The notes under the pieces were generated by a model. That model made no database searches. It was not told the origin of the DNA and worked only from the letters and a program-made list of their open reading frames with translations. 64,000 nucleotides of DNA from Vermamoeba vermiformis (Eukaryota), in NCBI GenBank assembly GCA_045837725.1, contig JBEWZL010000269.1, positions 1 through 64,000 of the forward strand. Direction: 5' to 3'. Positions 46,869-55,712 of the stretch are shown here, piece by piece (positions within the stretch are counted from its first letter, which is position 1; every line of letters begins with the position of its first letter). The position numbers and the translations under genes are program-made.

Positions 46869-48605
46869 GAGTAATAAAGGTCGTTTTGTCTCTTACAAAC
46901 CGGCGAGTACAAATTAAAAAAATTTTATTATTACTAAAACGTCTAATTCTAACCTCACTACTACTATTATTATTACTAATATTATGTCTACTTTAAGTTG
47001 AAGTTGTTCGATCTTTCTTGAGCTGGCAAGAAAATCGATTCTCGCGCAATAACCATGCATTCCGCCTATTACAAAGGCTTATCTAGCGCGATAAGAAGTT
47101 TTCGAGCGAAATCAATTTTGCAGTAAGGAAAATGAATTCGTTTGAAGATCTTGACCCAGATCTCGAGCGGAAACACGTCCGTGAATGCATCTTCGCGCAA
47201 TCTTATCATCTGAATAAATGCGTTGATGTGTCTAATGTCGTCGATGCTGCGCCAGTAATTTCTATAATTTCGAAGAAGGGGCTTTTGGACGATATCAATA
47301 AATTCTTGAACACCATGTAAATCAGCCGCAGTAATCGACTCATTGGCTTGAAGTATGCTCGCTAGTGCTTGTTGCATCATTTCTTTCTCATCATCATTTG
47401 CTCCATCCAGAGATTTAACTTTGATCGTTCGTATTGACTCGTTGATTTTGAGGGCTGATTCAATATGACGAAAACATCGCTTATTGACGGTCAAGCTGGT
47501 TAATGTCTGATTGGCTGCCAGAGCTTCGCTGAATTTTTTCAGGTTGTTTTCGGTTTCTTCTTCCGGCTCTTTACTCCATTCAGGGGCGTAAAGATGCAAA
47601 GATGACAATGTGAAATTCGCACGAAGAACATCTGCAAACATGCTGTAATAGCGTCCAGAGTACTTGTCGCGTTGGAAATCAAGGTCTAAATGTCGTAATG
47701 TCTTATTCGTCATCAATCCTTTTGTTATTTCGGACACAAAATATTCGCCAGCTGGTTGTACTTTATTTCTGAAAGTAAAACTCTCCAGCGTCGAATTGAC
47801 TTGCAATATGTTTCCTATTGACCAAAAACTTTGCATCGTTTTGCGAATATCACTGTCGTATGAGCCATCCTCCGAAAAAGTTATTGATAATTTGGTGATG
47901 CTCTTGCTGTTTCTGAGAATTTCACAAATGTCAACGTCTTGCAATGCAATATCCGTCATTATCAATGTCTTCAACTTGGTTTGCAAAATTGGCTTCAATT
48001 TATCAAAATTTATCAATGTTCCATCACCAGCAATATCGAGTTTTCGTACATTTTCGTTTTCTGCCAATTTTTCTAGGTCACTCTTGCCACCAACAAGCAA
48101 GCAAATGTCCGAAAAGTTTGGTACAGACAAAAGCTCAAGATAGATGTTGTCCTCGCTGCTGAATACCTTCATGAAAATTGATGTCAAATTTGGACCTGTC
48201 AAAGTGTCAACTAGCTCTGTCATCGGTGGTGAAGAATCTGTGCTCCCTAGAATGAGGGATACACTAGTGATCCTATTCGTCGCCAATATTTTTTCATACG
48301 AAGCTCGGTATAAGTCCCACCAAGAGGTTTCAATGGTAAGTCGGCTAATTGACTTGTTTTGAACGTACAGATCTGTAGCTTGGATGTACGTGTCGGGGAT
48401 TATATCTATATCCTCTAAAGTTGGGCTGTTTTTCAATGCATTGCGTAGTCCCCAACTTTTCAATGTTCTAATGCTTTGATAGTTAAGGACGATGAATTTT
48501 TTTCTGGTAGGAAAAAATAACGGTCACACACGTGGATTAAAAAACTTAGGTTAGTTTTGCATTAATTTTGTACACTAAATAAACAAAAGTTTTGACAAAA
48601 CATTT

Positions 48606-51101
48606 TCATTTATTTGGCAGAAGTTTTGCCGCCAAGGAGTACACGAGTTTCTTTACGTAATGCGTGGAGTACTTGTTCTGAAAGCACTCCACAACCAAAT
48701 GGAATACTAAATCCTTCTGTGTAGCTGTTCGCAGATTAGTAGACTTTAGATACTGCTCCAGTTGCTTTACGTCTTCTGGATTGATCTGTTTTGATTTGTA
48801 GCGTTGCTCGGTAAATTCTTCAACCTTCAATTCAAAATGAGATGATGTTGCACGGTCGGCCAAATCAACAATAACAACTGAATTTTTGTTCCGTGCAAAA
48901 TTCAGTTCTTGCATCTGTCGCAGGATCCGTTGCGACTTTGGCAACTTGGCAGTTCGAACACTGTCAAAATTAATTTTACAATATTTTAAAATGACCGTTT
49001 CACTTACCCAATATTATAAATTAACTGACAATGCTGAATAATTTGAAAATTTAACTCGTACGACAAATTGCCACTTAGCTCTGGGGCCATTGAGGATAAA
49101 AAATGATGCCACGCTTCTAGTGCAGACGTTCCTTGTGGTATGGAATCCTGGTGATGTATTAATTTTTCGTGTTGCTGGGAAACGCATCCAACTCACTTGA
49201 ATGAGAGTAATATCGTGCAAGCTTTGAAGTGTGTTCGCCTTGCACAAATTATCAATTGCCATTAATACTTGTTCATTAACAATGCCTTCGCGAATGTCTA
49301 TCTTGGTGTCACGCCTTTGACAATAATTATTTTGTGTCAAATAAATGAATACGCAACTTACTTTTGCTGATTGATAATTAGAAGAACTTCATTAGCATTA
49401 TATTTGGTGCGAATTGATGGCTCAGTGAATGTAGTTGCCCAATCTCGCAATGCTTTTTCTAGATCGGATGCTGAAGTGTACGTATGTGTCTTGATCTGCC
49501 CTAGCACTTTAGATAGTTCTTGAACGCTTTCCTTATAGTCTTTTGTAATTAGAGTCTACTGAATTGCTTTGACAAAGAATGTGTACCTGGATGTGAACGA
49601 GCCATCAGTTTGACTACGCGCATCTTTGCATGGTAGATATCTGTTAATAGTTTCGGTTCCCTGGCAGTGGGAAAACAGTTTTTGAACGCTTGTAGGACAG
49701 AGGATGAGTCTGTTATTGGATTAGAAGAAAATGCGACGGATTGACCAAACAGCTTACCAACAGCTATGTTATCAGTGCATACAAATTTGGTTATTGGCGA
49801 CTCCTGAAGCTTCCAAATGCTTGAATATACTTCTGCTGCTTTCTGGCGATCATCGGATGGCGTAATTTTGACTTGCAAGACCTCTCCATTTTCATTGCTG
49901 ACCGAAAATAAACTTGCTTTCATTTTCATCTGTCTATATTAGTATCTACGAATGAGATGTGTCAATTGCTCACCCTTTTTTTCTCAGTTTCGGAAAACGC
50001 AGACATGTTTTTGACAACTTTGTAAGTGTGATCTCCTCGTAAAACAACTCCGGTGGTCGAACACAATTGTTGTATTTGGGAGTCCCATTGTGGTTTCACT
50101 ACTTCCTTCCAGAAGGCGGTGTACATGTTTTTAATTGACCACGTGGAGATAGTTGATGCACAAGTCTCTGAACTCCAATTAAGCATAATCAGCTTCTTAA
50201 TTCTCGTAAAATTAAATCCAACTAGAGGCATTGAGTCAAATATGTAGCTGGCAAGCCTAGTGGTGAACAACAGGCGTGGACTGACAAACAAGCCAGTGGA
50301 AGGAGAATGGTTTGCGGACACCATTTTTACGACGTGCGGAGAAATATCGTTGAACCATTCCTCATGTGATGAACAGAAGTATTTTTGTACCACCAAATTG
50401 AAAACTCCGTTCTTGTCATATAGTGTTCGCCGTTTATGTCCCCTTTTGTGAACCTTGCACTGTTTACCGTTAGATCTAACAACAGGTTTGCGCGACATAC
50501 CTTGATATTACTCGCTGCCGTTGAGCATTGATGTATTTTAGCAGCTGGTACCCAACAGAACCTGACATCATCAACACCGGGTTCGTCATCTAAGTAATTG
50601 TCAATCACACACTTGCAGTTATTAGTACAAACCAGAGTTGTCATCGTCATAGTCAACTAACTGGTCATCGTGCTCGCTTTCAGAATCTGTGTCTGTGCTG
50701 GAGTTCGTATCACTCTCATCCTCGGACAAAATGTCATGCAACACAATTTGAATGTCGTTCAGATCAAAGACATCTACGTAATGATTAGCACTACTTCATT
50801 ATAAAGTTCGCATACCAATTGAATCGGACACATCCGTCGTGGTTGCAGGTTGTGGTTCACGCTTGATTTTGTTCGTTTGTTTGTTCGCCCAACCATGAGG
50901 CCGTTTGGACACTAAATGCGTTAGTATTACAACGCGCTCTAAACACTTACACTTTAAGTGCTGCTCCCTAACGTGACGCTTCATGTTTGAATGCACGCCA
51001 CAGCTGTAATTGCAGTGCTTGCAGTAGTAGCGGCACACGCCTCCAATATCTCGCACAGTATATCCTGCAGCTATTTTTGCTGTCTCGTCATTGATTTCCA
51101 T
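48606..51101 (-). CDS. DDE transposase, ~11 exons, N-terminal C2H2 zinc finger
   Basis: In-frame after splicing: CKHC..HVREQH; LRGDHTYKVVK (D1); SVSNENGEV; FVCTDN (D2); TDIYH (DxxH); QGTSALEAWHH (E). Confidence 0.85.
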
Positions 51102-51207
51102 GTGCGTGTGTTGAATAAAATAAATCGAACAAATTTCGGTTGTGCGTTTCCGTTTCCTGACACAAACACAAATCCACAACAAAAATATCATTGGTTGTTA
51201 TTTGATT

Positions 51208-52828
51208 ATGGCGGATAAAAATAAGAAACGCAAGGTGATTGAAGAAGACGTTGAGAAAGTCAAGACAAGTAAGCTGATCGGATTTTTCAGGTAATATCAC
51301 AATTAATTAATTTTATTTATTAGAGAAGCGTCGCAAAGCCGGTAAGTAAATATATAACCTTGTTTCTGTATTTACGTGAATTTAGGAGCAACAGCGAATA
51401 AGAAGAAAAAAACTGATGGTAAGATCCGTTTATTTTGTACGCAATATAATAGTCCTATTCATAGACGCAATAAATGAGGGAATTAACACGCAGAATAAAG
51501 GTAAAATTCAACTTCACAAGTTTTGGCTGAACTTTTGCAAAAAGATTTGCCGAATCTCTTTCGTTTTCCTAAACTTTTGCTAATCTTTCGCTTAACTTTG
51601 GAGATGACAAGGAAAGCAAGCAAAACGATCAAGCGAGTGATGCAATAGTCAATAACAATGAGGTAAAGGCAGAAGCGAAAAGTGATCCAGCAATTTCTTT
51701 GGTCTCGATCTCGGCTGGGGATTATATTGCTGTTATCGGGGAGGAAAAAAGTACGTATTAATAAACAATTAATTATCATAATTAATTAAATACTGCAGAG
51801 CCTTGGTACGCAATTGTGCGCGAAGTCGTGGGCAATAATGAGCAGATTCGGGTATCATTTCTGGAGGTAATTATTAATTAATTAAATAACGCACGTAAAG
51901 CTAATAAATTTCTATTAGCCAATTGCCAATCGCCGAATTTTATTCTCCGAAAGTGAAGCAATAGATGAGATACCCTATAATTCGCTCATCTGTAAAATCT
52001 CTGTAACAGCGCAAGGAGGACAGGTTGTTATTCAAGACGCCGAGCAAAAAAAGGCTACTCATACGTGGAATCGCATTGGTATGTATTAAAACTAAATTCA
52101 AATTTGTGATTAATTAATTAGATATGTACATCCGCAATCCGGCTCTCGAAAAACGAGAGAGAATTGGCTCGTGGCTATTTCCCGTTCAATACTTGAGAGA
52201 AAAGCTGACTGACACTGGTACGTGCATTATTAAATTCATTGTAAATTTACTAATCAATCGTAGATATGCAGAAAGTCGTATTCAAAGCAATGGGCAAAGA
52301 CCTCATGTTCAACTGCTTTATGATCAATTTGTCGAAGTACGGATTTTTCAACAAGCAGCACTGGCAAAGTAAGAGCAAGCAAGGAACCGGATCTACTCAA
52401 TTCCCGTTCTTACTGTTAATCCGCCTGTTTGCAATATCACTCGAAAATGCGACTTGGACCAAAGGCACTGAACCAATCAAATGGCAAGCAACGTTCACCA
52501 TTCCCAACGTTGGATCTCGTCAAGTAGCGATCTGTGGTACGTGTAACATAATTGTTAAATAACTCCTGACGTGCGATAGGTTCAATAAGTGGCGACACGT
52601 GGGTGAGTTCATTGAACACACTGTGCGAACTTGGATTTTTGGCCCCGATCTCATATTACTCAGGCGATGTAGAGTACGCAGAGATTATTGTTTATTAACG
52701 ATCATAAAAATAACTAATATTACAGGCTCACAATTACTCTACCACCGTTCCAGCCTCTGACGAACACTCCACAAGTTGTGGATCTAACGACCGCTATGTT
52801 GGAGGAATTCGACGTTACTACGAACTAA
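51208..52828 (+). CDS. Transposon accessory protein (~360 aa, ~11 exons) with basic NLS-like N-terminus and BAH-like domain
   Basis: Continuous reading frame through GT..AG introns from ATG 51208 to TAA 52828; AGDYIAV..PWYAIV..IRVSFLE..ILFSESEAIDEIPYNSLICKISV. Confidence 0.7.
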
Positions 52829-53685
52829 AATAGTTTGGATGTAAAAGTCATAAATAAATTTACAAAAGTTTTGCATTAGTTTGTTGTTCCACGTGTGTGA
52901 CCGTTATTTTTTCCTACCTTTTTTCTTGCGCGGATGAGATCGATTATGTCCTCTGAAGTCGTCGGAAAATAAACCTTAGCAACCAAATATTAGTCTAATG
53001 CATATTAATATCAGTTTTAACTTACCGGTTCGTAAAGGAGTTCAACTTCTCGAATTGACGGATCAATTGACGACTTTAATCGTTCGAACTGACTAGCTGA
53101 TAAATCGTTCCTTGTTACGCGTAATCTATCAATGTGTTTGATCTGACTTATCATTGAACAAAATTCATCGAACACTTGGTCTTGAATCGTGTAATTATTG
53201 AAAATTACCGTTTTAATCTTCTGAAGTATTTCATCGCCTTTAAATAATATCTTTTTGATCCATATGATATTATCCGTTGAGATTGTCATTGCTTGGAAGT
53301 TGATCTGACTTATCTTGCATGTTTTATTGTGAATCCAACTTTTTAAATCTTTCCAATCAGACTCGTTAAATTCGTTTTCATTTACGTATAAATTTTCGAA
53401 TCGTTTCGTATGCTTTTGTAATTGTTGCTTGTCTTTGTGCTGCATGGGAATCTCAAATAACGCATCCGCTGACTCGCGATCAAATTCATACTTTGGTTCG
53501 GTGAGGAACGAAGGACTTGTTATCCGACGCCATTCTGTGTCCAATGCATTCATTGTATGTTATTGTAAGGGGAGTTATTAATCATCAATGATTAAAAAAT
53601 CTAGTCTTGAATGAGGTGTCAATTCGTCACAAAAGGCTAAATTTTATTTAATCGGGTAATTTTGGGGCCGTGAATTGATTCAAAT

Positions 53686-55712
53686 TTATGATACAGTTTT
53701 AAGACCCTCCATAAATTTTTCCGCGAAGTTGATTCTGCACCCGGGTAACTGGATCCGCTTGAAAATCATAACCCAGATCTCGAGCGGAAGAACTGAAGTG
53801 AATGCTTCTGGTCGTAGGCGCATCATAGTAATCAAAGAGTATATTCTATCAATATTTTGATGGTACGCCAGATTATTTCGTTGCAAAACTTTTTGGATGT
53901 GGACCGGGATCGGAACTTTCTGTAGTCCTAATGAAGTTAAAGACTGATTCGTTTGCAACACAGTATCTAATTTTTCGAAGAATTCATTCGGAACAGCTCC
54001 GAGCGCGGTCGTTAAATTAAGTTTTTGCAATGAGTTGTTAGTCTTCAAAACCGACAAAACTTCAGTCCAACAGCCGATTCCTTCGGCAGTCAAGCTTGCT
54101 AGTGATTTGTTAGTAGCAATTGCATGGCTGAATTTCACTAGTTGGTTTGGCAATGGCTCGAGTCCGCCTAAGCGAAGAGATGTCAAAGTGTCATTTTCGA
54201 TCAGGGCTTCTGCAAACATGTCAAAACAATCTTCGATAATATGTACGTCCAAATGCTTCAGTACTTTGTTATTCTTCAGTCCTGCTGTGAATTTTTCGAA
54301 AAAAGTTTTGACGTCGTTTAGTGGCACTTTGAGTGTCAAACTTTTGAGCGTTGAATTGACTTCCAAAATATCCGCAATGTTATCGTACCGATCTGCACGA
54401 ACAATCAGTCCCGGCTATATAAGAGATAAGGCACTTACGAGAAGGTCCGTTATAATAGGTCGTTAGTCCGTTTCCGTCTTCTATGACGGACAGCTCGGTA
54501 ATAGACGTGCTATTTTTCAAAACTTGACAGATGTCAAACTTTTTCACAGTGACGTGAGATAGTGCTAGCTTCGTAAGTTGTCCTAACAACATCGTTGATA
54601 TCTTTTCGAATCCTTTCGTTGATCCGCCGAATATATGGAGCTTTGTGACGTGTTTATTTGGCGCTATCAGGTCAGGAAAGTTGCTAGATCCGCGAAACCC
54701 GCAAGCGACTTGCAGATCTGTAATGTTTGGGATGTTGAGTATATCTTTGAACGTATCTCCTTGCATATCACATTCAATTTTCATCGAAGTCAGGCTCGGA
54801 CGTGTTAAAGACTTGCTGAGCGAGCTGATCGAGTATTGTGTCACGCCAAAGGTTGCTTGTATTTCAATATGTGTTATTCGATCATTTTCTATCAGATTTT
54901 TAAATACCGATCGATGATTGTCCCATCCATCGGTACCAATAGCTATTCGTGTAACAGATTTGTTTTGTGCGATCGCATCTGCTGCGAGCGGCAAACTCCA
55001 AGGGTTTAACGCAAATGATTGTATTGAGACATGTTCCAGCGCAGGACTATTTTTTAACGCATTGAAAAGGCACCAGCCAATGTCAAAGTCGCGAATATAA
55101 TTGATCTCTTTCATTCCGATAACAAATCTTCGCTTCTTTGTTACTTGTTCGTAAATAGAATTGTCGGACATTGCAATATATATCTAATAATTACGTTAAT
55201 TGATCCTAATTCCGCTATAATATTATTGGAAGCAGACTTACAGGTTCGTGGATGAGCTCGACTTCATTTATTGACGGATCTATCGTCGCCTGGAGTTGCT
55301 GTACTTGATGTTGGGATAATTCGTTGATTGTTATTCTTAGTCTATTAATGTTTCTGATTTTGCCGATGAGGGAACAAAAATCTTTGAATGCCTTGTCATT
55401 TTGGATCGTGTAATTGTTAAAAATGATTGTTTTGATGTTCTTGCTTTTAATCAATATCTCTGTGATATATGAAATATTCTCGGAGGTAATTGTGAGCGCT
55501 CTGAACGTTACGTGATTTATTTTGTTTTTTTTGTCTTGCATCCATGTCGTTAAATATTCCCAATCTTCCTTTTTGAACTTATCTTCACTGACATATAATT
55601 CTTCTAGCGTCTTTATACGGTCATACAATTTTTCTGGGTTGGTTTGATTAGGAATGTCGTAAACCGCTTCTTTCCAAATCGGCACGCCTGACTTGTTGGT
55701 TTTACCGTTCAT
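53686..55712 (-). CDS. Intact RI-like LRR protein with C-terminal F-box-like motif (tandem paralogue), 3 exons
   Basis: NALKNSP, LEVNSTLKSLTL, LKNNKVLKHLDV, LQTNQSLTSL; C-terminal LPLEIWVMIFKRI; introns ~55184-55241 and ~54393-54438. Confidence 0.85.

Follow-up and report, generated by a model that had tools for sequence, protein, structure and literature searches.

A young two-gene DNA transposon with terminal inverted repeats and a probably Dada-like transposase in Vermamoeba vermiformis

The window analysed here (64,000 nucleotides of Vermamoeba vermiformis, positions 1 to 64,000 of contig JBEWZL010000269.1, assembly GCA_045837725.1) carries a DNA transposon at 48506-52918 (4413 bp), which encodes a transposase and a second protein, ORF2 (from open reading frame, ORF), in head-to-head genes. 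The element is young and intact, and both of its genes are transcribed. The same site is found both with and without it, it belongs to a family of several lineages that includes non-autonomous derivatives, and both genes are conserved. We infer, with a probability of roughly 0.7, that it is an autonomous cut-and-paste transposon from a lineage that bears terminal inverted repeats (TIRs), is not target-specific and has a Dada-like transposase. Most likely it represents a new DxxH-class variant whose accessory protein is novel, and counterparts in Repbase may exist. Words of the element were listed in 24 sequencing runs, of which X3, X7, X10 and X21 were compared in detail. The features of the element and its insertion site, in window positions, are as follows.

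47072-48497, minus strand: 3' part of a host exon; open frame, transcript without the insertion in X7, no Pfam match.
48498-48505: left copy of the target-site duplication (TSD), 8 bp, TTTTTTCT; exact flanking repeat, single copy at the empty site.
48506-48536, plus strand: left TIR, 31 bp perfect (41 bp at 93%), beginning GGTAGG; self-comparison of the window.
48606-51101, minus strand: transposase gene, 11 exons, 682 aa; gene model, part-spliced in X7, intron positions kept in relatives.
Transposase, about residues 25-48: possible C2H2-like finger; Pfam below cut-off, E 0.018.
Transposase, between this finger and the zinc-binding segment: acidic linker.
Transposase, D174-x2-G-x10-C188-x2-H191: putative zinc-binding segment; motif.
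Transposase, D302/D374/E529 with D402xxH405: predicted catalytic triad and DxxH; invariant residues.
Transposase, C-terminus: predicted helical.
51102-51207, no strand: inter-ATG region, 106 bp, candidate bidirectional promoter; the X10 ORF2 contig begins at 51163.
51208-52828, plus strand: ORF2, 11 exons, 362 aa; spliced transcripts in X7 and X10, homologues in related elements.
52888-52918, minus strand: right TIR, 31 bp perfect; self-comparison of the window.
52919-52926: right TSD copy, 8 bp, TTTTTTCT; exact flanking repeat.
52919-52972, minus strand: 5' part of the same host exon, on the other side of the element.

The two terminal repeats are identical at 31/31 bp. When flanking-repeat lengths of 2-12 were tried, the match was exact only at 8, and 8-mers were shared by chance at 9 of 200,000 random position pairs within the window. 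The TSD is low-complexity sequence; it was nevertheless accepted because the empty site was observed. A contig of X3 (record 4), an independent water metagenome, joins 48497 directly to 52919 with one TSD copy. A contig of X7, whose sample label is shared with a possible source of the assembly, crosses the same empty point with 12 differences in 1289 bases and is therefore taken as a second allele, which makes it probable that only one allele carries the insertion. The insertion point is inside a host coding exon, and across the empty site the host frame is open for 499 codons. These results bear out the perfect 31-bp TIRs, intact 8-bp TSD and recent insertion proposed in the initial annotation; its coordinates, 48498-52926, do hold the element but also take in both TSD copies. 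X3 additionally has a complete element elsewhere than at this site, with 7 substitutions and 5 gap letters; three of the four transposase-coding changes in that copy are silent.

The transposase model contains 10 GT-AG introns of 39-49 nt and no internal stop. Its stop codon lies 100 bp from the element end, and that of ORF2 lies 90 bp from the element end on its side. In X7, which is listed as 'DNA?' yet has spliced and polyadenylated contigs, introns 2, 9 and 10 are spliced as joints and intron 3 is seen as a loose end whose sequence agrees with the following exon, so that 4/10 are directly supported. In a free spliced alignment, 9/10 introns share codon and phase with introns of the related element on contig C251, and the remaining one with an intron of that on C80. 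Residues D302, D374, D402, H405 and E529 are invariant in 9/9 family models; the last ligand of the zinc segment, H191, is found in all eight models covering it, and the first ligand pair varies. The spacing of the D-D-E residues is 72 and 155 here, within the family ranges of 70-75 (D1-D2) and 139-165 (D2-E). The initial annotation had described an in-frame transposase over about 10 introns with a D..D..DxxH..E signature, a second gene facing the other way and stops about 90-100 bp from the termini, all of which agree with the models. It had also called the 106 bp between the genes a shared promoter; the gap and the transcription of both genes stand, while a bidirectional promoter there is probable.

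Searches with the transposase and with profiles gave few leads. Pfam returned no significant family on 16 window exons or 27 family segments. PF10551 and PF00872 were among the families without a match on exons or segments, a search weakened by introns that split the domain, and single window exons did not match the hAT dimerisation, BED or THAP domains. DUF6729 (PF20499), to which the initial annotation had likened the proteins, was likewise not matched in these exons and segments; a genome-wide search gave no match, as did its control, and the term was not found in the open literature searched. Transposase exon 5 and a profile (A1) found nothing at E 0.01 in protein collections, a weak test that covered only longer proteins, and a sequence-profile search of the PDB gave 0 matches for profiles A1 and A4. 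To look for the RNase H fold expected of a DDE transposase, a 114-aa intron-containing fragment was folded, with a pLDDT of 57.5 and a strand-strand-helix-strand-helix order; its best Z was 5.0, with no Foldseek match below E 0.001, so this fragment is uninformative on the fold. In the ESM Atlas, the clusters closest to the piece from D2 to DxxH were unnamed ones from oomycetes and basidiomycetes (0.92); IS256/MULE/ISL3 clusters came next (0.85-0.89) and are leads only.

For ORF2, all 10 introns are spliced in X7 and X10, with poly(A) at 52878 in X7, and the contigs of X7 contain transcripts of both genes. As a rough guide, contig depth in X7 was 370 for ORF2 but 3.6-6.8 over the transposase gene, with neighbours at 12.7 and 37.5; X10 had ORF2 only, at depth 22, and no transposase contigs. 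The predicted protein has a basic, lysine-rich N-terminus and, at about residues 85-165, a beta-rich region that appears SH3/Tudor-like by eye. The C-terminal domain had no match with exon 9 in collections of longer proteins at E 0.01, in the Atlas or in the fold search. The best Atlas score for ORF2 was 0.76, which gives no lead, and a folded 90-aa exon (pLDDT 62) reached a best Z of 6.2 with no Foldseek match below E 0.001 and was uninformative. ORF2 and the transposase are each about 50% identical to their counterparts in C251 and C80, with proportions of differences of 0.32-0.36 at non-synonymous sites (pN) and 0.80-0.85 at synonymous sites (pS, saturated). On these comparisons ORF2 is under purifying selection; it belongs to no known family, and every ORF2 homologue found sits inside an element of this transposon family.

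Two further observations concern ORF2. An in-frame 3-base insertion at 51655 is common to X3 and X10 and absent from the window and X7. In the raw RNA of X21, 44 of about 13 million reads were placed, none at least 95% alike, and represented only a diverged ORF2 relative (52278-52414). An additional member of the family is therefore transcribed in X21, a different sample under the same species label, but these reads say nothing on this copy.

The assembly searched (43 Mb, 309 contigs, with short AT-rich introns) contains eight transposase-bearing elements, including the present one, plus derivatives resembling miniature inverted-repeat transposable elements. Searching with exon 5 indicated relatives on 8 other contigs, of which C93 (a weak exon match, E 0.07, with nothing on follow-up) was dropped. 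C251 has a complete 4455-bp element with open frames and 71-bp TIRs that differ from those of this element; the C80 element contains a stop and has lost one end. More distant lineages are found on C18, C131, C235, C132 and C208, where TIRs begin GGGACGAA. TIRs of the relatives are 48-77 bp long, element sizes are 4.4-6.5 kb, and the derivatives on C216, C209 and C108 are non-coding and 0.8-1.2 kb long. The initial annotation had proposed a check for other copies and their TSD lengths: seven of the eight testable elements have an exact 8-bp TSD and the eighth (C235) matches at 7/8 bases, a count that omits C131 and C208, which run into the ends of their contigs, and the truncated C80 and C43. 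The targets of the eight elements are all different and unrelated, at 78% AT, and neither tRNA genes (0 in 13 loci) nor Rfam matches (0 in 12 loci) were found near the family. The elements on C131 and C235 are 99.15% identical and have different left flanks. A head-to-head ORF2 homologue is present in 7/8 transposase-bearing elements.

Outside this genome, 2/19 stretches from JGI metagenome contigs encode relatives, neither of which reaches the ORF2 side. A search of representatives gave eight matches: the window's own exon, six unnamed fragments and one (P0004) unrelated on inspection. No viral contig stretch (0/4) was confirmed as a relative, and the single prokaryotic candidate confirmed by tblastn (1/16) was rejected as a glycosyltransferase-like ORF with a chance DHTYK. 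The labels of runs with element words include water, aquifer and soil metagenomes. Runs X10-X17, X19 and X20 (three other organism labels, some unlabelled) hold 12-19% of the words each and could reflect co-culture or infection of the same host; X10 is the run with the spliced ORF2 transcript.

Other structures were seen at related loci. A solo left end on C98 (343819-343861, L020) is 43 bp long and 100% identical, with an 8-9-bp direct repeat around it, and fits a broken excision, an aborted gap repair or a later deletion. The 3' end of the C80 transposase (L017:2500-3050) is lost at GC-richer sequence with long ORFs, which is probably another inserted element. In the lineages on C18, C131, C235 and C132 (L038, L039, L040, L042), the ORF2 region contains internal tandem repeats (about 155 bp), while repeats of the TGTAAAC/AGTGTAA type occur in introns and near ends. 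At the insertion site itself, the element lies within one of a set of tandem paralogous host genes on the minus strand (47072-48505, 52919-53559 and 53689-55712), which have repeats resembling leucine-rich repeats by eye and a common C-terminal motif; three segments of them had no match in Pfam. The X7 empty-site contig also skips 147 bases (48336-48482), bounded by GT..AG on the plus strand in the minus-strand host ORF; either they are spliced out in antisense or the other allele has lost them by deletion.

To place the enzyme, motif registers of Dada were read by eye from translated passages of Dataset S1, fish Dada transposases (PMC8869645). The Dada registers were D-x2-G-x10-C-x2-C, D-S/G-T-K-K, NE-x-GQ, D-x-x-CC, DIWH-x3-R then HP-x-Y, and GSTSLESFH. 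The window counterparts, in the same order, were D174-x2-G-x10-C188-x2-H191, DHTYK, NENGEV, TDN, DIYH-x3-R then HPDY, and GTSALEAWH. The six register patterns were full in 8/9 models and present at 4/6 in the partial model L044, and none was found in a full-core MULE (Mutator-like element) ORF of the same genome. That ORF (L046, C44:48826-49095), a canonical intronless MULE transposase of 573 aa, was the sole valid MULE control, L047 and L048 being unsuitable because their longest ORFs need not hold the core. On these motifs, the assignment of the enzyme to Dada appears good but not statistical. The initial annotation had favoured the MULE/IS256-DxxH group with poor classification; membership of the DxxH group and the poor classification hold, whereas the motifs are nearer to Dada than to MULE and PF10551 matches nothing here.

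As published, Dada elements are without TIRs, have a 6-7-bp TSD and a C-terminal CCHC finger, and all families with defined ends target small RNA genes (tRNA, snRNA, 5S) (PMC3706591; PMC8869645). The element departs from Dada in all four traits (TIR absence, TSD length, RNA-gene targets and the CCHC finger) and so is not strictly Dada, though its enzyme looks Dada-like. No description of a TIR-bearing or two-gene Dada was found in the open literature, with Repbase, Dfam and subscription journals outside this scope; the available parts of PMC5751038, PMC13565253, PMC4455052 and PMC12973397, the last of which screened plant TIR elements with a Dada profile, describe no TIR-bearing Dada.

Several points weigh against this reading. 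The Dada link comes from by-eye translation, and the register test is partly circular because its patterns were written while viewing both families. The MULE control also has D-G-T-H-K and LEAWH, so that two motifs are common at looser stringency. Six of the 10 transposase introns are without direct RNA support. The profile of the putative ORF2 barrel (A5) found only matches at E 1.3 and 1.7 in the PDB, ORF2 was missed by profile in C208, where a gene at the corresponding position looks similar by eye alone, and the split among putative roles of ORF2 given below is our estimate. The depth of the X3 element (16.3 vs 2.8-3.5 in the flanks) suggests several copies elsewhere in X3, but the depth of contigs is an unreliable guide to copy number or expression, and a 31-bp TIR alone would make the X3 contigs end at the termini. 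The assembly has one full copy of this exact element.

The presence of TIRs, an 8-bp TSD and an extra ORF also counts against a Dada-like placement, as these are ordinary traits of MULEs, for which TIRs of 14-500 bp, TSDs of 8-11 bp and extra ORFs are described (PMC6446971). The element could on this basis be a divergent member of the MuDR superfamily with a mudrB-like accessory gene, its likeness to Dada reflecting motifs common to the IS256/DxxH group. Repbase treats Dada and MuDR as remote relatives, separated for peculiar features (PMC4455052), and the Atlas search reaches PF00872/PF10551 clusters at 0.87-0.89. We consider such an origin rather unlikely, since the genome-wide PF10551 search matched three other loci, none of this family, those MULE loci gave no match to the family profile even at E up to 5, and the NE-x-G-x-V, DxxH-x3-R..HPxY, GTS-xx-E and D-x2-G-x10-C-x2-C/H registers are as in Dada and unlike the MULE ORF.

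The four departures from Dada would also fit an unnamed DxxH lineage that stands apart at superfamily rank, either as the sister of Dada or at a position between it and MuDR. This is consistent with the lack of a Pfam family, with relatives found only as unnamed environmental fragments, one of which (L045) ends in TIR-like sequence about 90 bp past its stop, and with an ORF2 that has no known relatives. It overlaps the best explanation, however, differing only in rank, and unbounded Dada families may share this anatomy: many published families have no defined ends (PMC3706591), and Dada-1_Ec32 is given as 'incomplete' with TSD '?' (PMC12477816). A lineage of that rank therefore seems improbable. 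The shallow transposase contigs beside deep ORF2 (3.6-6.8 against 370 in X7, none against 22 in X10) and the single full copy could instead indicate a real element that is no longer self-mobile here and was moved by a relative such as C251, with ORF2 a captured or domesticated host gene. This is very improbable: neither frame is broken, whether in this copy or in X3, the C251 TIRs differ, all ORF2 homologues found lie inside family elements, and conservation is equal in both genes.

For the preferred reading, an autonomous element with a Dada-like enzyme, a mechanism may be proposed by analogy with DDE/DxxH enzymes. The transposase would bind both TIRs, cut the element ends using a metal site at D302/D374/E529 and, with a stagger of 8 bases, join them to AT-rich target DNA, reading no long target sequence. 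ORF2 would be an abundant nuclear helper required for persistence of the element; its retention across lineages of 25-50% transposase identity suggests that the element needs it. The large excess of ORF2 over transposase favours a chromatin or anti-silencing role over a stoichiometric cofactor or repressor. Action on chromatin, keeping the element open or unsilenced, is accordingly our leading suggestion, at somewhat below even odds; a cofactor of the transpososome or of targeting is possible but less favoured, and a repressor of transposition or another function is unlikely. A wider proposal is tentative, with the odds clearly against it: the family would be an undescribed DxxH branch linking Dada to Mutator, the first with defined boundaries, carrying an obligatory, highly expressed chromatin protein of a new family. 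If true, the combination of catalytic and zinc domains of Dada type with TIR ends and free target choice would represent an ancestral condition, preceding the loss of TIRs in Dada and its turn to RNA genes as targets, and many 'incomplete' Dada families of fungi, algae and protists would belong to this branch.

Chemically the element belongs to a known class, of which it is a variant; it is not a new mechanism, and unpublished Repbase counterparts may exist. With it come a new, conserved family of accessory proteins and, for a transposon family unannotated in Pfam and protein collections, defined ends; the short two-gene unit is directly usable in an excision/integration assay.

Among known systems, MuDR/MULE and IS256 elements share with this element TIRs, a TSD range (8-11 bp) that includes 8 bp and a DDE core with C/DxxH, and MuDR/MULE elements also insert in genes and carry additional ORFs (mudrB, VANDAL) (PMC6446971). 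They differ in motif registers, and ORF2 resembles nothing found. The Kol0 group of Kolobok, with KolX, combines a DxxH transposase with a second protein and has RR..YY termini, a pattern that the GG..CC of this element also follows (PMC9587614). Kolobok duplicates TTAA (4 bp), whereas this family duplicates 8 variable bases, and it was ruled out because the TSD differs. hAT and P elements have short TIRs and C/DxxH. Their TSD is about 8 bp (PMC3706591), and they resemble the present element in these three traits but do not share its two-gene anatomy.

In Dada, too, the DDE triad is accompanied by a DxxH that follows the second D; the D-D-E spacing is similar (68 and 176 in the 1402-aa Dada-U6_DR, PMC3706591, as against 682 aa here) and the gene, as in this family, is intron-rich. 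Its size of 4.7-11 kb (PMC3706591; PMC8869645) places the 4.4-6.5 kb of this family at or near the low end. A putative counterpart of the N-terminal CCCC finger of Dada lies here in the same D-x2-G-x10-C-x2 register, with H rather than C as the last ligand, and the C-terminal CCHC finger is not in this transposase, whose last exon (117 aa) has one cysteine. Where Dada has no TIRs found, TSDs of 6-7 bp and small RNA genes as targets, this family has 31-77-bp TIRs, 8-bp TSDs and unrelated AT-rich targets, including a protein-coding exon. The conserved divergent second gene is not mentioned for Dada in the available parts of PMC3706591 and PMC8869645. Dada is described as sequence-targeted and TIR-less and is a proposed gene-delivery tool; for the study of how it recognises ends and targets, a young, intact and expressed element that resembles it, yet has ordinary TIRs and shows no preference among targets, would be a natural comparison.

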